From positions 4,021-68,020 of IMG/VR virus record IMGVR_UViG_3300033073_001660: 64,000 nucleotides of DNA; one strand, 5' to 3'. This document shows positions 23,279 through 64,000 of this stretch, one piece after another; within the stretch, counting starts at the first letter, position 1; each line of letters opens with the position of its first letter. Both the position numbers and the translations under genes were made by a program. The DNA is from a virus (lineage: Duplodnaviria; Caudoviricetes). The notes under the pieces were generated by a model, which saw only the letters and a program-made list of their open reading frames with translations, made no database searches and had not been told where the DNA came from.

Positions 23279-23306
23279 GAACCTTCAGGTAACACCAGAG
23301 TATATT
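23279..23306 (+). promoter_or_regulatory. Putative non-late promoter GAAC-N17-GTATATT
   Basis: Lies upstream of the cysC cluster. The same bipartite pattern is found at five other sites. Confidence 0.4.
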
Positions 23307-23327
23307 ATATCAAAATAATCAAGTATT

Positions 23328-23771
23328 TTGATCATAAACATTACTGGCCAAGCAGGCTCTGGTAAAACTACAATTGCTAGGGAACTAGAAAAGATCATTA
23401 AGAAACCTATTGTGATCGATGGCGATGAACTTAGAGAGATCTTTGTAAACAAAGATTATAGTGAAGAAGGACGTCGCAAAAATATTACTAATGCTTATAA
23501 TATCGCTAGATTTTTAGAAGCTAAAGGTTTTATTCCAATTATTGCACTAATAAGTCCGTATCAAGATCTTAGGGAAGATCTTAAAAGCCAATCAACTGTT
23601 TCTGAAATCTACTTAACTACTTCACAAGTTAGAGGTAGAGAACACTTTTTTGCACAAGGATATGTTCCACCAAAGGAAGATTTTCTTCCTGTAAATACAG
23701 ATCTTCCTCTAGATGACTGTGTTCAACAAATATTAATTTATACTATCGAGAAGAATGGGAAAAAAGGTTAA
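23328..23771 (+). CDS. cysC: Adenylyl-sulfate (APS) kinase
   Basis: P-loop ITGQAGSGKTT, then IDGDELR, DYSEEGRRKN and ALISPY, all canonical CysC motifs. TTG start. Confidence 0.9.
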   Translation: MIINITGQAGSGKTTIARELEKIIKKPIVIDGDELREIFVNKDYSEEGRRKNITNAYNIARFLEAKGFIPIIALISPYQDLREDLKSQSTVSEIYLTTSQVRGREHFFAQGYVPPKEDFLPVNTDLPLDDCVQQILIYTIEKNGKKG

Positions 23772-24207
23772 GATTAGATATAATCATGATGCTGGTGAAA
23801 GCCCTCTAAAATGGAGAGTAGTAATTGATGGAAAGGAGCACCTTGCCACAAACGTCGATGTCCTTGTTCCAAGTGTTACGACTGATGACGTTATTGAAGG
23901 AGTTGGAAAGAAATTCCATATTAGCTGTGAGCCTGATCTAATCGTTTGGGAAGGGGATAAACTTGTCCTAAAAGATAGCGCTAAATGGATAAGTCATAAA
24001 AGACATCTATTAAAATCATTAACTTATAGGCTTTATTCTTCATGTATCACAGCTTTAATCGCTTCACTTATTTTAGGAAATACTAAGATCGGTTTCTCAA
24101 TTGGAATCGCTGATTTTCTAATCAAAATCTTTACCTACTATGTTCATGAAAGAATTTGGTATCACATTCCATTTGGGATTCAAAAAGTAAAAAAAGAGAG
24201 ACTATGA
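23755..24207 (+). CDS. DUF2061-like membrane domain fused to an unknown N-terminal domain
   Basis: C-terminal RHLLKSLTYRL...FLIKIFTYYVHERIWYHIPFG is the DUF2061 signature. This domain is commonly found next to cysC. Confidence 0.7.
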   Translation: MGKKVKIRYNHDAGESPLKWRVVIDGKEHLATNVDVLVPSVTTDDVIEGVGKKFHISCEPDLIVWEGDKLVLKDSAKWISHKRHLLKSLTYRLYSSCITALIASLILGNTKIGFSIGIADFLIKIFTYYVHERIWYHIPFGIQKVKKERL

Positions 24208-24629
24208 CATACAATCTATTCATCGGTAGATATCAATCTCCGCATAAAGGTCACATGACTATTTTTAATGAATACTTAGAAAAGGGTATGCCTGTTCTAA
24301 TTGCAATTAGAGATATTGAACCTGACGAAAATAATCCGCTTACTGCAGACGAGGTAAAATTCATTTGGGATACCATCTATCTAGACAATCCTTTAGTAGA
24401 GACAATAATTATTCCAGATATTGCTAGTGTTAATTATGGCAGAGGAGTCGGATATGAAGTCAAGGAGATCCAAGTAGAGTCAACTATCGCAAATATCTCA
24501 GCGACTGAAATTAGACGTCAAATTAGAAGTGGAGAAGACGCTTGGAAAGAACTAGTTGACCATAAAGGACATGAAGTATTATCCATGTTATTAAAAAATA
24601 AACAAATCAATGGCAAAGAAACAAACTAA
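24204..24629 (+). CDS. HxGH-family nucleotidyltransferase (cytidylyltransferase-like)
   Basis: FIGRYQSPHKGH and ISATEIR motifs. The ATG at 24204 overlaps the upstream TGA (ATGA). Confidence 0.8.
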   Translation: MTYNLFIGRYQSPHKGHMTIFNEYLEKGMPVLIAIRDIEPDENNPLTADEVKFIWDTIYLDNPLVETIIIPDIASVNYGRGVGYEVKEIQVESTIANISATEIRRQIRSGEDAWKELVDHKGHEVLSMLLKNKQINGKETN

Positions 24630-25500
24630 TAAATTTTCAGTATTTCACCTAGAAGGTGGTTTAGGCAAGCATATCGCAGCGACAGCTGTTGCTAAATGTA
24701 TTAAAAATAATCATCCTGATCGTGAACTAATTATTGTTTGTGCATATCCTGAAATTTTCTTAAATCTTCCATTCGTGGATCGAGTTTATCGAATTGGGAA
24801 TACTCCATACTTCTATAAAGATTTTATAGAAGGCAAAGACAGCTTAATTTTTAAACACGAACCTTATTTTACGACCGAACACATTCATAAAGAGTTGCCT
24901 TTAATTGAAAATTGGTGTAAGCTGTATAATCTTGATTTTTCAGGAGAATCACCAGAGTTAATATTCAATATTCGTCAACAACAATATGGATTTAAGAAAT
25001 GGAATAGAGATAAACCGATTGCTGTGATCCAAACAAACGGGGGTCCTCTAACTGAACAACCGTATCTCTATTCATGGACTAGAGATATTCCTTCATATGT
25101 CTCACACGATTTAGTAAAATATCTTAGTCAAAACCACCACGTCATTCAAATATGTAGGTCTCCAGAGCAAGCTATTCCTGGAGCAGAGGCTATTTTTGAA
25201 CCAATGTCAAACATGGAACTATTATCAGTTCTTCTCTTCTCAGAAAAGAGAATCTTAATTGATTCAAGCATTCAACATGCGGCAGCTGCTTTAAATCTAA
25301 AATCAACCGTATTGTGGATAGGGACTTCACCTAAAACCTTTGGATACGACTTACATAATAATATTGTAGCTCAACTTCCAAACGATGTCAAATTACCAGA
25401 TAGTTATCTATTTGACTATAACTTCCATGGAGCAAATCACGAGTGTCCTATTCTAGATCTAAATATATTCGATCAGACTGAAATTTTAAATTCAATCTAA
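24610..25500 (+). CDS. Glycosyltransferase, GT9 (heptosyltransferase)-like
   Basis: GGLGKHIAATAVAKCIK...HPDRELIIV and IDSSIQHAAAAL...VLWIGTSP. Confidence 0.75.
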   Translation: MAKKQTNKFSVFHLEGGLGKHIAATAVAKCIKNNHPDRELIIVCAYPEIFLNLPFVDRVYRIGNTPYFYKDFIEGKDSLIFKHEPYFTTEHIHKELPLIENWCKLYNLDFSGESPELIFNIRQQQYGFKKWNRDKPIAVIQTNGGPLTEQPYLYSWTRDIPSYVSHDLVKYLSQNHHVIQICRSPEQAIPGAEAIFEPMSNMELLSVLLFSEKRILIDSSIQHAAAALNLKSTVLWIGTSPKTFGYDLHNNIVAQLPNDVKLPDSYLFDYNFHGANHECPILDLNIFDQTEILNSI

Positions 25501-26135
25501 TGGATTTTACGTATCGTCCAGTAAATATTAATGAGTATTTTGATAAGATACTCTATATCAACATGGATAAAGACGTTTCTCGTAATCATGGAATGATCAA
25601 GCAATTTGAAAAATTTGGAATCACAAACTTTCAAAGGATTGTAGGAAGCGACCTAACATCTCTATCTCAACCTATAAGCTATCGTAATTTCATAAAGACT
25701 GATGAAAAATATATTAGAGGTCAGCTTGGTTGTAGGAGGGCTCACCTTAATGCTATCAAGTATGCTAAGAATCAAGGATATCGACGCGTCTTGATACTTG
25801 AGGATGACGTTGAGTTCCTGATCGACCCTAGTGAATTACTCACAATAAACCAAGAGATCCTCAATGATTGGGACATGCTTTATTTCGGCGGACTAATTGA
25901 GCCGTTCTTTAGAAATCAAATAGTCTGTGCCCATGCATATGGGGTCTCTGCAAACTTATATGACGATATCCTAGAGATGGGAGAACATTCAGGTATGGAA
26001 ATAGACAATTTTTATGCAAAGGTGATTCAACACATGAGTTACAATCATACTAGCATAGGAAAGTACCGAATCCGAATCATTCAACCATTTAATCAAATAG
26101 TGCAAAATAAAAATTACCAATCTAATATAGTATGA
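25500..26135 (+). CDS. Glycosyltransferase family 25
   Basis: ILYINMDKDVSR, GQLGCRRAHL, VLILEDDV. Confidence 0.85.
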   Translation: MDFTYRPVNINEYFDKILYINMDKDVSRNHGMIKQFEKFGITNFQRIVGSDLTSLSQPISYRNFIKTDEKYIRGQLGCRRAHLNAIKYAKNQGYRRVLILEDDVEFLIDPSELLTINQEILNDWDMLYFGGLIEPFFRNQIVCAHAYGVSANLYDDILEMGEHSGMEIDNFYAKVIQHMSYNHTSIGKYRIRIIQPFNQIVQNKNYQSNIV

Positions 26136-26947
26136 AAAAGATATTTTTTCAATCTTCATTACCTAGAGCAGGTTCAACTCTTCTACAAAATATCATCGGT
26201 CAAAATCCAGACTTCTATGTTACTCCTACTTCAGGTGTCCTAGAGTTAGTCTACGCTGCCAGAAACAATTACACTAATTCACCAGAGTTTAAAGCACAGG
26301 ACTCATCCCTAATGCGATCTGGTTTTACTCGATTTTGCCATGATGGAGTACTTGGATTCTTTAATGGAGTAACTGATAAACCGTATGTTTTAGATAAGAG
26401 TAGAGGATGGGGAATACATTATGGATTCTTAAATTCATTTTATCCTGAGCCCAAGATTATTTGTATGGTTCGTGACCTTCGCGGTATCTTTGCATCCATG
26501 GAGAAAAACTTTCGTAAAAATCAGCACCTAGATTCTGGAATCGTTAATCATTCAAACATGACAGGTACGACTACCGAAAAAAGGATCGATATTTGGGCAG
26601 CTGGGCAACCTGTTGGATTAGCTATTGAGAGACTTCATCAAATATTTAAAGAAGGAGTCAATCAAAAAATGCTTTTTATTAAATATGAAGACCTAGCTAA
26701 GAATCCTATTCCAGAAATGGAAAAAATATACGATTATTTGGAACTACCTTATTTTGAGCATGACTTTGATAACATCGAGCAGATTACACAAGAAGATGAT
26801 GCAGTATACGGCATCTATGGAGATCACCAGATTCGCAAAAAACTTTCACCATTGAAGGTCGACTATAAGGAAATCTTAGGACAAGGCGCCTGCACATGGA
26901 TCAAGACCAACTATAAATGGTTCTACGATGAGTTTAAATATTATTAA
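26132..26947 (+). CDS. PAPS-dependent sulfotransferase
   Basis: 5'-PSB motif SLPRAGSTLL, then DKSRGW, 3'-PB-like IICMVRDLRGIFAS, and IKYEDL. Confidence 0.88.
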   Translation: MKKIFFQSSLPRAGSTLLQNIIGQNPDFYVTPTSGVLELVYAARNNYTNSPEFKAQDSSLMRSGFTRFCHDGVLGFFNGVTDKPYVLDKSRGWGIHYGFLNSFYPEPKIICMVRDLRGIFASMEKNFRKNQHLDSGIVNHSNMTGTTTEKRIDIWAAGQPVGLAIERLHQIFKEGVNQKMLFIKYEDLAKNPIPEMEKIYDYLELPYFEHDFDNIEQITQEDDAVYGIYGDHQIRKKLSPLKVDYKEILGQGACTWIKTNYKWFYDEFKYY

Positions 26948-37054: not shown

Positions 37055-37078
37055 ACTCTTTTTAGTATAATAGTATAG
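37053..37078 (+). promoter_or_regulatory. Putative non-late promoter AAAC-N16-GTATAG (also contains TATAAT at 37066)
   Basis: Heads the operon that contains the phage sigma factor. Confidence 0.45.
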
Positions 37079-49257: not shown

Positions 49258-49284
49258 AAAGGGTGTAAATTTTTACACCCTTTT
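49258..49284 (+). terminator. Intrinsic terminator
   Basis: AAAGGGTGTAAA-tt-TTTACACCCTTT hairpin followed by a T-rich tract, at the end of the late operon. Confidence 0.8.
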
Positions 49285-49306: not shown

Positions 49307-49314
49307 AGTATAAT
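49307..49314 (+). promoter_or_regulatory. Putative -10 element AGTATAAT
   Basis: Lies just after the terminator, 19 nt upstream of ATG 49333. No RAAC upstream element is seen here. Confidence 0.45.
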
Positions 49315-49332
49315 ATCTAAAAATTTCTATAT

Positions 49333-49608
49333 ATGAAAAATTCAATTGTAATCGGTCCTATTCAAAAGGCCAAGCCCATGACTCAAAGAGCGTCGATTTT
49401 AGATCAACGTTTAGCTAAAATGAAAGTTGGAAACTTCTTCGAAGTTACAGGTCTTTCAAACAAAAATGACGTCTCTAATTTTAGAGCATCAATCCAATAT
49501 TTCTCAAAAAAGAGAGATGTTAAGGTTTCTACTTCAATGGTAAACGGTGTTCTTAAAGTTGAAAGAGTAAAATCTAGTAAAACTAAAGAGGTATCCAAAG
49601 TAAAATAA
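49333..49608 (+). CDS. Small basic hypothetical protein (possible nucleic-acid binding)
   Basis: 91 aa, Lys/Arg-rich; LAKMKVGNFFEV...KVERVK pattern. Confidence 0.5.
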   Translation: MKNSIVIGPIQKAKPMTQRASILDQRLAKMKVGNFFEVTGLSNKNDVSNFRASIQYFSKKRDVKVSTSMVNGVLKVERVKSSKTKEVSKVK

Positions 49609-49625
49609 TAAATAAAAACTTTTAA

Positions 49626-50426
49626 ATGGATACTCGAATAGATTTTAACACTGCCAAAAAGTTTGATCAGCTTGAATTGATTGATTGGAAAACCAAATAC
49701 GGCGATTTCCAATTCTACATCCGTAAAGGATTAAATGAAATAAAATACAACGTAGGTACAAACGTTTCAAAAAGTCCAAAAAGCGGCGAATACATCAAAC
49801 CCTTGACTTCTGCTGCATACGGACCTGAAATGGATGTAAACGGAGTTTTCAATCAAGAGGACACGTGGTTAGACATAGGTGGACACATCGGTCTCTTCGC
49901 AATTCGCATGGCTCGACAGTTTCCTAAAATAAAAGAAGTTGTTTCGTACGAGGCTCTACCTCACAACGCTTCTTTTGCATTGGAAAATATTAAAGTCAAT
50001 GGAGTAGAGTCTGAATGCAAGGTTGTCCAAAAAGCAATCGTTCCTGGAAATGAAGAGACTATTGATTTTTTTATCTCAAATGATTCAGGAAAGCATTCAA
50101 TTCTTCCAATCAGAGGTCGTGAAATACTTCATGTTCCGGCAATCAATATTAATGATGCAATTGCCAACCATGGAGCTACTGCAATCAAGATGGACGTCGA
50201 AGGCGCAGAATACGAATTGATCAAAGCAGTCACTGATTGGTCTAAGGTCAGAGTAATCATCATTGAGTATCATTTTATGTACAAGCCTCTTAAGACTAAT
50301 CGCGTTCAAAAATTCCAAGAGATTGTTTCTATTCTTGAAGAGAATTTCGATGTCGTTCGTAAGATTGAAGCAGTTGAGTACGGTAAGAATTTTATCACTC
50401 ATATTGTTGCTCTTAAGAATGATTAA
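49626..50426 (+). CDS. FkbM-family SAM-dependent methyltransferase
   Basis: WLDIGGHIGLF, VVSYEALPHN, IKMDVEGAEYELI. Confidence 0.88.
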   Translation: MDTRIDFNTAKKFDQLELIDWKTKYGDFQFYIRKGLNEIKYNVGTNVSKSPKSGEYIKPLTSAAYGPEMDVNGVFNQEDTWLDIGGHIGLFAIRMARQFPKIKEVVSYEALPHNASFALENIKVNGVESECKVVQKAIVPGNEETIDFFISNDSGKHSILPIRGREILHVPAININDAIANHGATAIKMDVEGAEYELIKAVTDWSKVRVIIIEYHFMYKPLKTNRVQKFQEIVSILEENFDVVRKIEAVEYGKNFITHIVALKND

Positions 50427-50844
50427 ACAGGAGAGTCCATATTTACTTCTACAGGAAATATACAACGAGCACCCATGGCGGATGCTCGTTTGTTGTATCA
50501 TGTTGAATTGTACCTCTAGAAAGCAGGTTGATCAAATAAGAGAAGAATTTTTTAGGAGATATCCTGACCCGTTTGAAGCAGAAAGAGCAGATCCAATTGA
50601 AATGGCTGAACTTATCGCCCCACTTGGATTTAAGAATCGGCGCACAAAGACGATACAACGATTCTCAAGCGACTGGCTCACACTCGATTGGCAAGAACCT
50701 AAGGAACTACATGGAATAGGCAAATATGCCCAGGACTCATGGGATATCTTCTATAAAGGTGATCTGACCGTTGAACCTACTGATGGAGTATTAGGGAAAT
50801 ATTTAGCTTGGGCAAGAACTCAGCCTGAAAATCCAGTAAAATAA
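50419..50844 (+). CDS. MBD4-like HhH-GPD DNA glycosylase
   Basis: SPYLLLQE..NEHPWRMLVCCIMLNCTS, PLGFKNRRTKTIQRFS, HhH KELHGIGKYAQDSWDIF and PTDGVL (catalytic Asp position) align with the MBD4 glycosylase domain as recalled. ATG at 50419. Confidence 0.85.
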   Translation: MIKQESPYLLLQEIYNEHPWRMLVCCIMLNCTSRKQVDQIREEFFRRYPDPFEAERADPIEMAELIAPLGFKNRRTKTIQRFSSDWLTLDWQEPKELHGIGKYAQDSWDIFYKGDLTVEPTDGVLGKYLAWARTQPENPVK

Positions 50845-50847
50845 TTT

Positions 50848-51903
50848 ATGAAAAGTTTATACGCATATTTTGGTCTACTTGACCTACATGACATTGATTC
50901 TCCAGGACATTCTCTTTATCAAATAGGTCTTGTCGATTCTTTGAGAGAATCATTTGGAGAAGAAAAATTTGATTTCTATTCATACTATCCAGAAGAAGTA
51001 ATTAAATCAGCGAGTCTTCAAGCATTTCCAGAAAATGAACTAGGTCAACTCTTTCACAAGTATAGAAGCGAATTATTTGATCAGCCTATTCATGATATCG
51101 AACAATTACTTAGTCTAATAAAAGAAAAAAAATATTCAAAACTTTATTTAAAGGCAAGATTCAGAAACCTTTCAACTCTTTCTAAAAAGTGGAAAGACGC
51201 TCGAGATTTTGATCAAATAATTCAGTGTGCGATTGATGCAGGTTACTCAAAAGATAAAATAATCATACTTGATACAGATCTTTCTCTTTCTGAAAAGTTT
51301 ATTGAGCAGACTAAAGACTTTGTGACTATCTTGATTCCATCGATCGATTTTCCAGGAATATCTAACATGTTCCTAGTAGATTGTGTGAATCTAAATCTTT
51401 CAAAGAATAAAAAAGGAGTAAGCAGTGTATTTTACGGAAACATTGATACTTCAAAATATAAAAGCGGAAACTCAAAAAGCGAGATCTTATCTGAAGCAAT
51501 CGATTGGATAAATCGTAATCATTGGTCGAAAGACGAAGATTTTTACCTAGTATGTAAAAAGAATGATTTTGATTCAGTGCCAGATAAATTGTCATCTATC
51601 CACCACATAGATAGACGAGATAGAGTTAAGATTTGGGAAACATTAGAGTCTTCTAGAATCATGGTAAATATTACAAAGGAGAAGTATAATGATCGTAAAT
51701 TTATTCCAGCAAGAATATATGAAGCGATGATCTTTGGAATGATTCCAGTTTCATATAAGTTTGACTTCTTATGTTCAGCTTTTTCGTTTGATAACCTTGA
51801 AGATTTGACAGAAATTTATGTATACTTATCGGAGTGTGATGATGCTGGCTTAGAACAAGCATATCGACACTTCATCAATTGCTATCTAGATAGTTTAAAG
51901 TAA
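50848..51903 (+). CDS. GT-B glycosyltransferase resembling T4 DNA beta-glucosyltransferase
   Basis: 351 aa; IIILDTDLSL, SVFYGNI and KYNDRKFIPARIYEAM correspond to T4 BGT YYLFTDIRL, VIYGGS and NYNDNFITLRVWETM (recalled). Confidence 0.65.
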   Translation: MKSLYAYFGLLDLHDIDSPGHSLYQIGLVDSLRESFGEEKFDFYSYYPEEVIKSASLQAFPENELGQLFHKYRSELFDQPIHDIEQLLSLIKEKKYSKLYLKARFRNLSTLSKKWKDARDFDQIIQCAIDAGYSKDKIIILDTDLSLSEKFIEQTKDFVTILIPSIDFPGISNMFLVDCVNLNLSKNKKGVSSVFYGNIDTSKYKSGNSKSEILSEAIDWINRNHWSKDEDFYLVCKKNDFDSVPDKLSSIHHIDRRDRVKIWETLESSRIMVNITKEKYNDRKFIPARIYEAMIFGMIPVSYKFDFLCSAFSFDNLEDLTEIYVYLSECDDAGLEQAYRHFINCYLDSLK

Positions 51904-51910
51904 AAATATA

Positions 51911-51947
51911 ATAGGTCGATAAATAAAATAAAGATTTATCGACCTAT
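51911..51947 (+). promoter_or_regulatory. Perfect 14-bp inverted repeat containing a late promoter and covering the start codon
   Basis: ATAGGTCGATAAAT (51911-51924), a 9-nt loop, then ATTTATCGACCTAT (51934-51947). GATAAATA lies at 51918-51925 and the ATG at 51946. Confidence 0.85.
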
Positions 51948-53226
51948 GAAAAAAATATTACTTTTCTTCATTTTTAGTTCTGCGATATTCGTAGAACTCT
52001 TATCACAGTGTAATAACTATCAAGTATACGAAAGTTTTGGTACTACTACTTTACCTACTCAGGGTGGAACATGGGCACACAACTCAGCAATTACTGTAAC
52101 TACTCCAGTCAGAACTGGTGCCAGAGCAATGGGTTTTAACGGGACTGGAGATTGGATTAGAACACCTCAAATCTCTTCTCCTGGAATATTCTCTTTCTGG
52201 TATAGAAGAAGTGCCAATACAACTGCCTGGAGCTGTGTTATTGAGACTTCTCCGGATGCTATTACTTGGACTAATCGAGGGACTCTATCTGCAATAACTG
52301 CAACATATCAACAATATAATTTAAACCTTGGGTCACTTGGCCTAACTAATGTGTATGTTAGAATTAGAGATACTCGTGCATCTGGAGCTCATGAAAGATA
52401 TATTGATGATTTATCTTGGACTTCAACTACTGTTTCGAATAATACATTGGTCCCATTCTTAGGAAACTGTTCACAAACAGTAAGCCTTCCTCTAACACTA
52501 GTTGATCCTGGAAGTTATGCGGAAACTTATAATAATAATCTTTCACAAACAATAACGTTTACGCCAGCTAATTCTGGTGATAAATTAGCTCTAGATATTT
52601 CTTTATTAGCGATTGAGTCAACATATGATTACTTGTACATATATGATGGTCCATCAACTAGTGATCCTTTAATTGCAACCTTGACAGGAAATTCAATAAA
52701 CCTCTCATATGTTTCGACAGGATCGACCGGTTCTCTTACTATTAGGTTTACGACTGACATCTCAAATGTTGGTTCATGGGAAGGTTTTCAAGCCACGATT
52801 TCCCAAATCACTCCTCTTCCAATTGAACTATTATATTTTGAAGGTAAGTCGATGGGTAGTAGTAATCTACTAACTTGGGCAACAGCTAGTGAAAATAATA
52901 GTTCTTATTTTGATATTTTGAAAAGTACTGATGGTTTCTCATGGATATCGATTGGGCACGTGACTTCAGCTATTAATTCAACTGCTCTTTTAACCTATTC
53001 AACAATTGATGATTTACCGAGACCGGTCGTTAATTATTATAAACTTAATCAATATGATCTTGATGGAAAGAATAAGGAATATGGTCCAATTTCGATCGAT
53101 AACCGTATACAATTAAAAAAGATAATTCGAGTAGTCAATCTTTTGGGTCAAAATATATCTAGCGAAGAAACAGGTATCTTAATTGAAATATATGAAGACG
53201 GTACAATGAAAAGAGTATATAGATAA
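51946..53226 (+). CDS. Secreted CUB-domain protein with Bacteroidota T9SS-type C-terminal region
   Basis: Signal peptide MKKILLFFIFSSAIFVELLSQ; CUB motif ESTYDYLYIYDGPSTSDPLIATLTG...LTIRFTTD; PLPIELLYF Ig-like domain; C-terminal KIIRVVNLLGQ...IEIYEDGT. Confidence 0.8.
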   Translation: MKKILLFFIFSSAIFVELLSQCNNYQVYESFGTTTLPTQGGTWAHNSAITVTTPVRTGARAMGFNGTGDWIRTPQISSPGIFSFWYRRSANTTAWSCVIETSPDAITWTNRGTLSAITATYQQYNLNLGSLGLTNVYVRIRDTRASGAHERYIDDLSWTSTTVSNNTLVPFLGNCSQTVSLPLTLVDPGSYAETYNNNLSQTITFTPANSGDKLALDISLLAIESTYDYLYIYDGPSTSDPLIATLTGNSINLSYVSTGSTGSLTIRFTTDISNVGSWEGFQATISQITPLPIELLYFEGKSMGSSNLLTWATASENNSSYFDILKSTDGFSWISIGHVTSAINSTALLTYSTIDDLPRPVVNYYKLNQYDLDGKNKEYGPISIDNRIQLKKIIRVVNLLGQNISSEETGILIEIYEDGTMKRVYR

Positions 53227-55957: not shown

Positions 55958-56139
55958 TGATTATAATCAATTGTAAAGGTAAACGTATCGAATGGGTACT
56001 TAAAACATATCGTCAAAAGGTTGATAAGACTCGACAGCTTGACGAACTTAAGTCTAGGAAAGAATTTGAAAAGCCTAGTGTTAAGAAGAGAAGAATTAAA
56101 CAACGAGCTCAATATAAACAGAATAATGTTAAATTTTAA
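55957..56139 (+). CDS. rpsU: 30S ribosomal protein bS21
   Basis: IEWVLKTYRQKVDKTRQLDELKSRKEFEKPSVKKR has the bS21 signature. Starts at a TAATG overlap. Confidence 0.9.
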   Translation: MIIINCKGKRIEWVLKTYRQKVDKTRQLDELKSRKEFEKPSVKKRRIKQRAQYKQNNVKF

Positions 56140-56620
56140 TGATTTTTTAAATGAAAGATGGGGGGAGGACGTTCAAATAAAAGATCGTCGTGCTGCGGGT
56201 GTTGCAGTAATTTGGAATAATAAAATACTCCTAATTCACCCAACTAATTCATCATGGAAAAAATCCACTTGTGGAATACCTAAAGGCAAACTTGAACCTG
56301 GAGAAGACCCGATTGCTGGGGCTCTTAGAGAACTTGAAGAAGAGACTGGCATAATATTAGACTCTTCTCAATTAGATCCTGAAATGCACAAAGTAGATTT
56401 CTATAATCACAAGAATGAAGTAGATGGTCACCTAATTTATTTTGTTTGCAAAATATTAGACCTCTCAGAAATAGGCTTAGAATCAGACAGGTTACCTAAA
56501 GGTCAACTTCAATTAGAAGAAGTTGATTGGGGAAAATTCGTCAGTGCTGAAGAAGCATATCCCATTATTACTAGAAATCAAATGATTATCTTAGATAGGC
56601 ATCTTCGCCTAAATAAATAA
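56126..56620 (+). CDS. Nudix hydrolase with capsid-targeting-like N-terminus
   Basis: Nudix box GKLEPGEDPIAGALRELEEETGI; ATG at 56126 gives MLNFNDFLNE. Confidence 0.9.
   Translation: MLNFNDFLNERWGEDVQIKDRRAAGVAVIWNNKILLIHPTNSSWKKSTCGIPKGKLEPGEDPIAGALRELEEETGIILDSSQLDPEMHKVDFYNHKNEVDGHLIYFVCKILDLSEIGLESDRLPKGQLQLEEVDWGKFVSAEEAYPIITRNQMIILDRHLRLNK
56613..56619 (+). promoter_or_regulatory. Late promoter core ATAAATA
   Basis: Upstream of GTG 56640. Confidence 0.5.
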
Positions 56621-59792: not shown

Positions 59793-61097
59793 ATGCTCCA
59801 TACCCAAGACTTTCGTGAACTTCGCGAGTTTGTTAATGAAATGAACTCCTCAAACTCTACTAATCATAAAGTTGATGTTCTTACCAAATATCAATATCAT
59901 CCATTCATTAAGAGGATCCTATTATATACGTATCACCCGTACTGGAACTTTGGTGTGACTTCTGCAAATCTTAAAAAGCGAGCAGATCTTATTGCTCCTA
60001 CTGGAATATACGATGACTTCTTTATGATGCTTGATGATTTCAATGAACGTAATATGACTGGTCACGCTGCAATTGAAGCTATGAATCGTTTTATCAAAGA
60101 TTACGAAGCGTGGGCTGACCTCATCTATCAAGTGATCGATCGTAACCTTGAGACTAGAGCGACAGTTACCCTAATCAATCGTGTGAATCCTAAGTTTATT
60201 CCGACCTTTGACGTTGCTTTAGCTCACGATGCGGCTAAAGTAAAAGGTGTAGATATTTTCGATGGTACCTGGTTTGTTTCCAGAAAGTTGGATGGAGTCA
60301 GATGTATCTGCTTTGTTCATGGAGAAGATGTTCGATTCTTTTCACGAAACGGTAAGGAATTTTTGACTCTAGGCAAAGTAGCAGAGGAAATCAGACGTCT
60401 GGGGATCACCGACCTTGTTTTAGATGGTGAATTATGTCTCATGAATGAAGATGGCTCAGATGACTTCCAGGGAATCCTGAAACAGATACAACGTAAGGAT
60501 CATACTATCGAAAATCCAAGATACCAGATTTTTGATATTTTGCAAGCTGGAGAATTTGCAGGAGAAGATGAGTCCCCGTTATTCTCTACCCGAATTGAGT
60601 GCAGAGAACAGTGGTTGGGTGACTTAGGCTCTTCAAATATCTTGGAAATGTTGCCGCAGGTCCGAATTAAAGACGAGGATGCTCTTGAGGAACTGAAGGC
60701 TCAATCTAAGGATTCAAACTGGGAAGGACTAATCGCTAGAAAGGACACACCCTATTCTTCAGGCCGATCTAAACATATGCTTAAGATCAAGGAGTTTTTT
60801 GACGACGAGTATATCGTTACTGGTCTGATTATGGGACCCCAACGAGTGATCGTAAACGGCAAAGAAATCGAAGAGGATATGTTAAGCGCTGTCACGATAG
60901 ATCACAAGGGATCTCAAGTTCAAGTTGGAAGTGGATTTACTATTGACCAACGTCGACACTATTATCGAAATATTGGAGAACTTATGGGAGCAACTATTAC
61001 TGTTCAATACTTCGAGGAAACGACCGATCAGCATGGAAACAATTCTTTAAGATTTCCAGTATTTAAAGGGAACCATGGAAAAACTCGGAGTATATAA
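59793..61097 (+). CDS. lig: ATP-dependent DNA ligase
   Basis: Motif I SRKLDGVRC, III VLDGEL, IIIa YQIFDIL, IV WEGLIAR, V MLKIK, and OB-fold GSGF...LRFPVF. Confidence 0.95.
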   Translation: MLHTQDFRELREFVNEMNSSNSTNHKVDVLTKYQYHPFIKRILLYTYHPYWNFGVTSANLKKRADLIAPTGIYDDFFMMLDDFNERNMTGHAAIEAMNRFIKDYEAWADLIYQVIDRNLETRATVTLINRVNPKFIPTFDVALAHDAAKVKGVDIFDGTWFVSRKLDGVRCICFVHGEDVRFFSRNGKEFLTLGKVAEEIRRLGITDLVLDGELCLMNEDGSDDFQGILKQIQRKDHTIENPRYQIFDILQAGEFAGEDESPLFSTRIECREQWLGDLGSSNILEMLPQVRIKDEDALEELKAQSKDSNWEGLIARKDTPYSSGRSKHMLKIKEFFDDEYIVTGLIMGPQRVIVNGKEIEEDMLSAVTIDHKGSQVQVGSGFTIDQRRHYYRNIGELMGATITVQYFEETTDQHGNNSLRFPVFKGNHGKTRSI

Positions 61098-63118: not shown

Positions 63119-63290
63119 AACAATCGATCAAGATAAGCTTCCTTGTAATTTTGACCATAATGGGGAATGTCTAATTTGCGATTGTTGGCCGGAGAATTGC
63201 GCTTATGATCGATATATTAACCGAGATTATAAGTGGGAAACTAAAGAAGAACTAAAAGAAATGTTTAAAGACTATGAACAACCTCGATAA
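63105..63290 (+). CDS. Small Cys-rich protein (possible metal binding)
   Basis: CNFDHNGECLICDCWPENC. Confidence 0.45.
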   Translation: MTPNKTIDQDKLPCNFDHNGECLICDCWPENCAYDRYINRDYKWETKEELKEMFKDYEQPR

Positions 63291-64000
63291 ACAATATCAA
63301 ACGCTACTTCAAACGATACTTGATTATGGTATTGTAAAGAGTGATCGAACTGGCACAGGAACCAAATCTATTTTTGGTTATACTATTCGTCACAATATGA
63401 AGGAAGGATTTCCTCTTATTACAACAAAGAAAATGTATTTCAAAGGTATTGTAACAGAATTGTTATGGTTCTTACGTGGTGATACAAACATCAAATATCT
63501 TGTTGATAATGATTGTCATATTTGGGATGGTGACGCTCTGAAAGCATACCATAAACACGAATTAGAAGAAATTAACAAATTCATGAAAGAAAACCCATTT
63601 ACCTTAGTTGATTTTCAATATACAACTATGGAAGAATTCATCAACAAAATAAAAACAGATGATGAGTTTGCTAAGACTTGGGGAGAATTAGGTCCAATTT
63701 ATGGTGCACAATGGAGAGCGTTTGGTGGATATAATAAAGTCCCAAGCGGTTGGACTCACGGGTCAGTAACATCATTTAAAAAAGTTGCTAAATGTGATCA
63801 GCTTGCAAACCTAATTAGTGACCTTAAAACAAATCCAGATTCAAGAAGACTAATGGTCACAGCATGGAATCCTGAAGAATTGGATCAAATGACTTTGCCA
63901 CCTTGTCATTATGGATTTCAAATGTATACAAGAGAGTTAACTTTAAGTGAAAGAACCGAATACAAAAAGAAAAGAGATGGTATTGTGCGTACTTTTGCAC
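63274..64000 (+). CDS. thyA: Thymidylate synthase, 3'-truncated at window end (absent from ORF track)
   Basis: Translated by hand with no stop to 64000: DRTGTGT, GFPLITTKK, ELLWFLRGDTN, LGPIYGAQWR, NPDSRR, AWNP, catalytic LPPCH. Confidence 0.95.
   Translation, partial: MNNLDKQYQTLLQTILDYGIVKSDRTGTGTKSIFGYTIRHNMKEGFPLITTKKMYFKGIVTELLWFLRGDTNIKYLVDNDCHIWDGDALKAYHKHELEEINKFMKENPFTLVDFQYTTMEEFINKIKTDDEFAKTWGELGPIYGAQWRAFGGYNKVPSGWTHGSVTSFKKVAKCDQLANLISDLKTNPDSRRLMVTAWNPEELDQMTLPPCHYGFQMYTRELTLSERTEYKKKRDGIVRTFA

Follow-up and report, generated by a model that had tools for sequence, protein, structure and literature searches.

An orphan phage glycosyltransferase family predicted to act on 5-hydroxymethylcytosine DNA, encoded with an FkbM methyltransferase and an MBD4-like glycosylase

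Introduction

Sugar-modified cytosine in phage DNA follows a textbook scheme that is rapidly being extended, in which cytosine hydroxylated or hydroxymethylated at C5 is the product of a thymidylate synthase (TS) homologue and receives sugars from phage transferases. GT-B DNA glycosyltransferases recovered from metaviromes were found to add hexose, N-acetylhexosamine (HexNAc) or heptose to 5-hydroxymethylcytosine (5hmC), and the heptose pathway uses a cytidylyltransferase (Pyle et al., bioRxiv 10.1101/2023.12.21.572611). Among the TS homologues, N177D selects dCMP, L143D/E accompanies addition of a hydroxymethyl and not a methyl group, and D169N is found in the 5-hydroxy-dCMP synthases (Lee et al. 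2026, PMC13326640). The DNA of phage XP12 is described as fully 5-methylcytosine (5mC) in PMC8670742. Here, a four-gene cassette encoding a small basic protein (g1), an FkbM-family methyltransferase, an MBD4-like DNA glycosylase and an orphan glycosyltransferase was examined in a 64,000-base stretch of phage DNA (the window; bases 4021-68020 of the 68,020-base IMG/VR record IMGVR_UViG_3300033073_001660). The transferase probably glycosylates 5hmC in phage DNA, and the methyltransferase and the glycosylase are candidates for tailoring the sugar and for repairing the modified base, respectively.

Three features of this cassette are new, namely a transferase family that has no name, the FkbM enzyme that almost always accompanies it and a coupled MBD4-like glycosylase. 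No description of any of the three was found in the searchable literature, where the terms 'MBD4-like' and 'phage' were not found together. An earlier prediction made from the sequence alone (the original prediction) had proposed that the three-enzyme unit was undescribed, and for the searchable literature this holds.

Results and discussion

The transferase belongs to a separate GT-B family

The AlphaFold2 (AF2) model of the transferase (36 family members; pLDDT 92.9, pTM 0.92) shows a GT-B fold with two Rossmann domains. Pfam families were all below the cut-off (best PF13524, 0.067), and searches against solved structures using phmmer and a PDB profile search returned nothing relevant and did not reach T4 beta-glucosyltransferase (BGT). 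No match was obtained by tblastn against 50,697 cultured phage records. The family was instead represented by 280 close metagenome homologues and by 54 representative clusters among 1.84 billion proteins.

A relationship with T4 BGT had been proposed in the original prediction, and part of it stood. The two proteins have the same length (351 aa), and a local match was found in the donor half, where hhalign placed residues 272-302 of the transferase family on BGT residues 253-282. With 24 aligned BGT-family proteins as the target, hhalign gave a probability of 77% and an E-value of 2e-5 over 67 columns. The invariant residues Y280, F285, R289 and E292 fall on BGT Y261, F265, R269 and E272. Within the BGT family, Y261, R269 and E272 do not vary, and these three residues presumably hold UDP. 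A similar R..E motif is also present in PF13524. A language-model search found four clusters of PF09198, the family that models the acceptor domain of BGT, within the 30 nearest (0.94-0.95), and the neighbours were all viral.

The part that did not stand was a family-level match, as none was found by HMM or phmmer and the fold is equally GT4-like. In Foldseek searches, T4 BGT and T4 AGT had the highest TM-scores (0.53-0.54; BGT 0.54) with E-values of ~5e-6, and lipopolysaccharide (LPS) heptosyltransferase, WaaG and glycogen synthase had similar E-values. VIA-align ranked the structure 6eji, which we take to be PglH, first (Z 17.5), followed by PimA (16.8) and BshA (16.4), with T4 AGT sixth (15.1) and T4 BGT sixteenth (14.1). 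Isoelectric point and net charge did not discriminate between the transferase and BGT families. Thr99-Asp100 of BGT is invariant in the BGT family and has no evident counterpart in the transferase by hand alignment; the invariant residues that are candidates for catalysis are His21, Asp117, Asp142 and Asp144. The transferase was therefore not assigned to the BGT family (PF09198, CAZy GT63), in view of the absence of a PF09198 match and of an evident Thr99-Asp100 counterpart. Judged from its sequence and model, it represents a phage GT-B family of its own whose donor half resembles that of BGT.

A predicted gp42-type hydroxymethylase is encoded by relatives carrying the cassette

The same cassette was found in five relatives, namely G001 (176 kb; transferase 84% and methyltransferase 95% identical to those of the phage studied here), G002 (207 kb), and G006, G007 and G008 (252-270 kb; completeness 93, 94 and 100%). 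Each encodes a second, divergent TS homologue of 289-301 aa, with a dCMP deaminase gene beside it. The best solved match of this protein was T4 dCMP hydroxymethylase (1b49; E-value 1.5e-20), followed by the CMP hydroxymethylase MilA, whereas matches to canonical ThyA were 1e-13 or worse. It has Asp at the position of ThyA L143, three residues before the catalytic Cys, retains Asp169, and has Asp at the position of N177. Because of Asp143, Asp169 and Asp177, it is predicted by the published residue criteria (PMC13326640) to be a 5-hydroxymethyl-dCMP (5hm-dCMP) synthase of the T4 gp42 type. On this sequence evidence, the jumbo lineage to which these phages belong very probably has 5hmC DNA, and 5hmC in the phage of this particular contig is an extrapolation from its relatives. 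A homologue of the hydroxymethylase that was looked for following the original prediction is thus present in G001, G002 and G006-G008, and is not on this contig.

A homologue of the second TS homologue (52% identity) is encoded in a huge-phage record from an uncultured source (LR756500.1, 462 kb; coordinates 151612-152457). That record also includes a distant homologue of up666, one of the genes upstream of the cassette, and no detectable copy of the transferase, indicating that the hydroxymethylase also travels without it.

The only TS homologue in the window is cut by the end of the contig. Judging by its full-length orthologues, which retain Leu143, Asp169 and Asn177 and are similar to canonical ThyA, it is treated here as an ordinary dUMP-type dTMP synthase. 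The orthologues (L021:1501-2835, L022:1501-2625) are unusually long, with 374-444 aa, insertions and a C-terminal extension, and they read IWDGDA where ThyA reads IWDEWA, so that the folate-contacting Trp83 is lost. This had hinted at a dUMP hydroxymethylase, an assignment that was dropped as Leu143, Asp169 and Asn177 are kept.

A further route to 5hmC, via a C5 DNA methyltransferase and a TET-type oxidase, had also been raised in the original prediction. This route is not indicated, because neither C5 DNA methyltransferase (PF00145) nor TET/JBP (PF12851) domains were found in this record and four relatives (G000-G004). A NUDIX gene in the window and P-loop kinase genes are candidates for a dCTPase and for a dNMP kinase accepting 5hm-dCMP.

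Distant transferase homologues lie in nucleotide-metabolism modules

The genetic context of the transferase gene was examined in 74 related loci, obtained in a search seeded with the transferase and having the cassette slot fully covered. The gene order in the jumbo lineage, up666-up531-(up83)-(g1)-methyltransferase-(MBD4)-transferase-dn619, is kept down to 36% transferase identity. Genes for the methyltransferase and the glycosylase were found in 70/74 and 42/74 loci, respectively, with both present in 40/74, and the glycosylase gene, where present, is always immediately upstream of the transferase gene. The co-conservation expected in the original prediction was therefore observed. Homologues outside this lineage provide the stronger evidence, because the jumbo-lineage genomes share ancestry.

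Distant homologues with 26-37% identity were found in other phage types, among them unrelated PolA and PolB phages. The homologue P0149 (30% identity; contig L122) is encoded in the order primase ... dUTPase_2, unknown, uracil-DNA glycosylase (UDG)-superfamily, transferase, TS homologue, PolA, methyltransferase, dCMP deaminase and RecA. The same UDG-transferase-TS-PolA-deaminase order surrounds P0157 (33% identity; L124 and L125), and a TS homologue is encoded directly 3' of P0169 (28% identity; L121). P0141 (37% identity; L126 and L127) is from a PolB phage in which the TS homologue gene is 2 kb away, with genes for Pyr_excise and an Exo_endo_phos nuclease. P0161 (L025) and P0167 (a JGI contig), both with 26% identity, are on short contigs that carry UDG, a small gene, the transferase and dUTPase_2. 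Contigs L024 and L123 were uninformative.

The gp42 signature is present in all of the TS homologues that are linked to the transferase. In T4, the BGT gene b-gt adjoins gene 42, and divergent true BGTs are found in the gene orders TS, small gene, BGT, dCMP deaminase and BGT, dUTPase. The context of the distant homologues, as read from gene content and order, is thus that expected of a 5hmC DNA glycosyltransferase.

The UDG-superfamily gene of the PolA-type phages (L122:4238-4873, L124:7351-8004; also L025:1364-1951) overlaps the start of the transferase homologue. It occupies the slot of the MBD4-like gene, to which it is not homologous, and an unannotated gene of ~300 aa is always found 5' of it. 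The association of UDG with the transferase may partly reflect the known PolA-UDG partnership (PMC13697223). In the L126 PolB phage, a T4 endonuclease V-type pyrimidine-dimer glycosylase (L126:14244-14651) and an Exo_endo_phos protein resembling apurinic/apyrimidinic (AP) endonucleases (L126:16209-17006) are encoded near the TS homologue, representing another pairing of modification genes with excision-repair genes.

If the acceptor were a virion protein or a host surface glycan, the transferase and methyltransferase would place a methylated sugar on it and the MBD4-like gene would be an unrelated insertion. The cassette does occupy a fixed slot between conserved large late or structural genes, by a gene for a CUB-domain protein, and the window encodes a GT25 enzyme, a sulfotransferase, an APS kinase and a cytidylyltransferase beside fibre-like genes. 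The top structural neighbours of the transferase are the GT4 enzymes PglH, PimA and BshA, the FkbM relatives include RfbT, and the glycosylase is facultative. However, the neighbours of the distant transferase homologues are dCMP hydroxymethylase-type genes and other genes of replication and nucleotide metabolism, not structural genes, a context that is hard to reconcile with a virion-glycan enzyme. Translational coupling of the transferase to a DNA glycosylase, of differing families, is seen in two phage groups that are unrelated. The fold-search profile of the transferase, with BGT at an E-value of ~5e-6 and PglH at the top, is that reported for validated DNA GT-B enzymes, and those are likewise found near structural genes. 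A virion protein or surface glycan as the target is therefore considered unlikely, and glycosylation of 5hmC in phage DNA remains, on the gene neighbourhoods, the probable function of the transferase.

The methyltransferase partner is an FkbM enzyme

The identity of the second gene as FkbM, put forward in the original prediction, is clear, as the match was above the curated cut-offs of both PF05050 (E-value 9.4e-12; 45.8 bits, cut-off 22.7) and TIGR01444 (E-value 7.5e-23; 81.6 bits, cut-off 37.7). The protein also matched phrog_8156 (E-value 3e-15), and its Atlas neighbours were FkbM without exception. RfbT, the O-antigen methylase family, is among the FkbM relatives. Enzymes of the FkbM class methylate hydroxyls, including those of sugars.

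This family chemistry, together with adjacency to the transferase in 70/74 loci, is the reason for a tentative proposal that the enzyme O-methylates a DNA-linked sugar. Four of the 74 loci carry the transferase without the methyltransferase, and the existence of such transferase-only loci (n=4) fits action of the methyltransferase after the transferase. A further statement in the original prediction, that FkbM enzymes occur in predicted phage base-modification neighbourhoods, could not be substantiated, as the searchable literature gave no link between FkbM and DNA hypermodification.

With the transferase acting on 5hmC DNA, the FkbM enzyme might have a different target, such as the nucleotide-sugar donor prior to transfer, the 5hmC hydroxyl (in competition with the sugar), a protein or a small molecule. 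Adjacency is the sole tie of the methyltransferase to DNA, the literature offers none, and in the related PolA phages no FkbM gene adjoins the transferase gene. However, the adjacency extends down to 36% transferase identity, the class is known to act on hydroxyls that include those of sugars, with RfbT among the overlapping families, and loci with the transferase alone exist, though a search seeded with the transferase cannot reveal loci with the methyltransferase alone. A different FkbM target thus seems improbable, and O-methylation of the 5hmC-linked sugar is kept as a possible role of the enzyme.

The glycosylase corresponds to the catalytic domain of MBD4

Residues 8-136 of the glycosylase matched residues 7-136 of 4ew4 with an E-value of 6.8e-28, and 1ngn was also matched (mouse and human MBD4). 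The next family was endonuclease III at merely 1.6e-3. The sequence LHGIGKYAQDS aligns with LHGIGKYGNDS in MBD4, such that the Gly-Ile-Gly of the helix-hairpin-helix (HhH) and the catalytic Asp are retained, and the MBD4 match noted originally, including ELHGIGKY and the catalytic Asp, was thus borne out. In 12 phage homologues from three lineages, G99, G101, Y103 and D106 are invariant, as are the blocks LNxT, PLG, GxGxY..DS and TDG. The protein ends 35 residues past the catalytic Asp in a stretch that is free of Cys, hence there is no iron-sulfur loop. It consists of the catalytic domain alone (141 aa), and the methyl-CpG-binding domain of full MBD4 is absent.

MBD4-like genes are rare in cultured phages, with 16 records found, 13 of them XP12-like Bradleyvirinae. 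The homologue in Xp12 (L001:5914-6396, QNN97216.1) is ~38% identical, and another is present in a Janthinobacterium phage (L130:3914-4384). The XP12-type genes are annotated as 'hypothetical' or 'endonuclease III'. In both Xp12 and the Janthinobacterium phage, the MBD4-like gene heads a module for a pyrophosphohydrolase/HAD protein, a TS homologue of the dCMP methylase type, dCMP deaminase and dihydrofolate reductase (DHFR). The XP12 TS homologue has Asp177 and has Asn at the position of ThyA L143. The MBD4-like family therefore appears, from these sequences, to be found in two unrelated phage groups, with C5-modified cytosine known or predicted in each.

MBD4 removes T and 5-hydroxymethyluracil (5hmU) opposite G, which arise from 5mC and 5hmC by deamination and are not excised by Ung. 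By analogy, repair of deaminated modified cytosine is slightly favoured as the role of the phage enzyme. An ATP-dependent ligase is encoded in the window and could serve later repair steps. The enzyme might instead be a quality-control or offensive glycosylase, such as one that clears phage DNA of pyrimidines lacking a modification or carrying the wrong one, or one that damages host DNA. This would suit its patchy presence (suggesting an accessory and not a core function), the glycosylases described in PMC11078745 as weapons in phage-host conflict, and the PolA-UDG fusions with which T-modified phages excise dU in front of the replication fork (PMC13697223). It is the least likely of the alternatives, given that the active-site residues in common with MBD4, an enzyme specific for the base opposite G, are invariant, that both independent phage homes have, or are predicted to have, C5-modified cytosine, and that no domain has been added.

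Proposed function of the cassette and its significance

Taken together, it is on balance likely that the cassette glycosylates 5hmC, with the sugar perhaps methylated, and removes deamination products. Cytosine in the phage genome would be replaced by 5hmC, and the 5hm-dCMP to be incorporated into DNA would come from a gp42-like dCMP hydroxymethylase whose gene lies elsewhere in the genome. In the manner of the T4 glucosyltransferases, the 351-aa GT-B enzyme would move a sugar from a nucleotide-sugar donor to the hydroxyl of 5hmC in DNA, and the FkbM enzyme, as optional tailoring, may O-methylate the 5hmC-linked sugar. Deamination products of the modified cytosine would escape the host uracil glycosylase, and the MBD4-like glycosylase would start base excision repair by excising 5hmU, glycosylated 5hmU, or T or U opposite G.

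Several observations weigh against this proposal. No PF09198 match was found in the transferase, in the 36 family members or in six-frame translations of G000-G004, and when the strand-4 region was aligned by hand, the position of the catalytic Asp100 of BGT was taken by Arg104. The modelled fold is GT-B and GT4-like, and appears no closer to BGT or AGT than to GT4 lipid and polysaccharide enzymes. A dCMP hydroxymethylase gene was not found on this 68 kb contig (~27% of the genome). The cassette sits among conserved large genes of late or structural appearance, the phage has a second glycan/sulfation cassette, and co-occurrence within the jumbo lineage, having one ancestry, is not independent evidence. 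The glycosylase is missing from 32/74 loci, the closest relatives included, and no member of the UDG family was found in five jumbo relatives, leaving no substitute where the MBD4-like gene is missing. The glycosylase would therefore be helpful and not essential.

A broader reading, that the lineage writes O-methylated glycosyl-5hmC and that phages with C5-modified cytosine, be it 5mC as in the XP12-like group or glycosyl-5hmC as in this lineage and the PolA phages, generally carry their own mismatch glycosylase (MBD4-like or UDG-superfamily) beside the transferase or synthase as a deamination-proofreading partner, is more doubtful. The principle would be that exchange of C for a C5-modified base yields T or 5hmU, which are invisible to host uracil repair, so phages bring an MBD4- or UDG-type enzyme. 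As cultured XP12 carries the same MBD4-like gene, unannotated, the deamination-repair idea is directly testable there.

If the proposed function is correct, a name could be given to a widespread unannotated DNA glycosyltransferase family of 54 clusters, apparently all viral, that ranges from abundant freshwater jumbo phages to smaller PolA and PolB phages. O-methylated glycosyl-5hmC would be a new chemical class and the first instance of a methylated sugar on DNA, and a methylated sugar on the base would bear on phage escape from restriction enzymes and from recently found defence glycosylases. Labelling of 5hmC and detection of mismatches are possible uses of the enzymes.

Organisation and surroundings of the cassette

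The cassette was originally predicted to be a discrete unit with an upstream terminator, an element at 49307, four packed genes and a closing hairpin, and every one of these features was found (Table 1). The genes are tightly spaced, with 17 nt between g1 and the methyltransferase gene, an 8-nt overlap of the methyltransferase and glycosylase genes, and 3 nt between the glycosylase and transferase genes.

Table 1. Features of the cassette and of other regions in the window
Feature	Coordinates	Strand	Basis or remark
Second sugar cassette	23279-26947		By fibre-like genes
GT25 glycosyltransferase gene	25500-26135		Within second sugar cassette
Sulfotransferase gene	26132-26947		Within second sugar cassette
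Other copy of AGTATAATA	37064-37072		32 nt upstream of gene starting 37104
Intrinsic-terminator-like hairpin and T-run	49258-49283	+	Hairpin scan; closes upstream gene, bounds unit
AGTATAATA promoter-like element	49307-49315	+	~18 nt 5' of g1 start
g1, small basic protein, 91 aa	49333-49608	+	Open reading frame (ORF)
FkbM-family S-adenosylmethionine (SAM)-dependent methyltransferase, 266 aa	49626-50426	+	PF05050, TIGR01444
MBD4-type HhH-GPD DNA glycosylase domain, 141 aa	50419-50844	+	MBD4 structure matches; ORF open from 50263, likely start ATG 50419
Catalytic Asp codon of glycosylase	50734-50736	
Terminator-like hairpin, 12 bp, GC-rich	50464-50490	-	Antisense, inside 5' part of glycosylase gene
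Orphan GT-B glycosyltransferase, 351 aa	50848-51903	+	AF2 model, GT-B fold
Perfect 14-bp hairpin	51911-51947 (arms 51911-51924, 51934-51947)	+	3' of transferase stop; overlaps ATG of next gene (51946)
CUB-domain protein gene	51946-53226		Pfam 1e-5
NUDIX gene	56021-56620		
ATP-dependent ligase gene	59793-61097		
TS homologue gene	63274-63999		Cut by contig end

When the upstream regions of ten relatives were aligned, the terminator hairpin and the GTATAATA block were the only conserved parts. The stem pairing of the terminator is kept in relatives through compensatory changes, and the GTAT..TA of the AGTATAATA element is invariant in 10 relatives, with the surrounding DNA diverged. The boundary elements are under selection, because the hairpin and GTATAATA alone are conserved in diverged upstream DNA. 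From its position and conservation, we infer that AGTATAATA acts as a promoter. The window holds two copies of AGTATAATA, each just 5' of a gene, a count that is not above chance (1.5 expected), and the sequence may represent a small promoter class that is distinct from the late ATAAATA motif. The closing hairpin is a candidate terminator or translational switch. The antisense hairpin inside the glycosylase gene is probably due to chance or is an mRNA structure.

No match to g1 was found in Pfam, PHROG or NCBIfam. It was detectable in 20/74 related loci and is kept in closer relatives. Its AF2 model (pLDDT 78) has an alpha/beta fold, for which a fold search gave a best structural Z of 6.8 and no convincing relative.

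The gene that follows the cassette, encoding the CUB-domain protein, is present, diverged or absent in relatives, making this a variable slot with fixed flanks. The second sugar cassette encodes an APS kinase, a cytidylyltransferase, glycosyltransferases and a sulfotransferase. Its target could be DNA and not just the virion, because the published DNA heptosylation cluster uses a cytidylyltransferase and a GT-B enzyme.

The record is a genome fragment (CheckV completeness 27%) and the window has a G+C content of ~34%. Near-identical DNA is present in freshwater and aquatic metagenomes from several studies, and the source is a large uncultured freshwater phage of the jumbo lineage. As the nearest cultured relatives are Flavobacterium phages and a neighbouring gene encodes a CUB domain, the sequence points to a host in the Bacteroidota.

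Comparison with known systems

The phage PolA-UDG repair systems of SP-15 and YerA41 (PMC13697223) are similar in that a modified-DNA phage has its own glycosylase and ligase, and the window likewise includes an ATP-dependent ligase gene. However, in those systems the UDG is fused to the polymerase and the modification is of thymidine.

The XP12-type 5mC module of Bradleyvirinae also has an MBD4-like gene, ~38% identical, at the head of the module. Its product is 5mC, it has neither a sugar transferase nor an FkbM enzyme, and its TS has Asn and not Asp at the L143 position. The mammalian MBD4 domain (4ew4, 1ngn) matches the phage protein over ~130 residues, including the HhH-GIG and the catalytic Asp, and iron-sulfur cysteines are lacking, whereas the phage gene is coupled to a transferase and encodes no methyl-CpG-binding domain, and the Arg of LNRTS is Cys here.

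In the arabinosyl-5-hydroxycytosine system of RB69 and DLP3 (PMC13326640), the modified dCMP is the product of a TS homologue and receives sugars from DNA glycosyltransferases, as proposed here. Their synthases are D169N, whereas the enzymes linked to the transferase keep Asp169, which predicts hydroxymethyl and not hydroxy.

The enzymes of Pyle et al. are also orphan phage GT-B proteins, with Foldseek E-values of 1e-5 to 1e-7 to T4 BGT and PglH, and some are ThyS-associated and some near structural genes. The characterised ones need a C5-methyltransferase and a TET-type oxidase, neither of which was found in G000-G004, and that paper includes no FkbM, O-methyl or glycosylase component.

The T4 glucosyl-5hmC system differs in several respects. 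The transferase has no PF09198 match, its acceptor (N-terminal) domain is unrelated to that of BGT by sequence and the Asp100 motif is not evident, its gene is far from the hydroxymethylase gene in the jumbo lineage, and T4 has no methyltransferase or glycosylase partner. However, the gp42-type TS homologue of the lineage has the same three signature residues as that of T4, the transferase is a 351-aa GT-B enzyme with the BGT donor motif Y..F...R..E, and in other phages its homologues adjoin the hydroxymethylase gene, like b-gt and gene 42.

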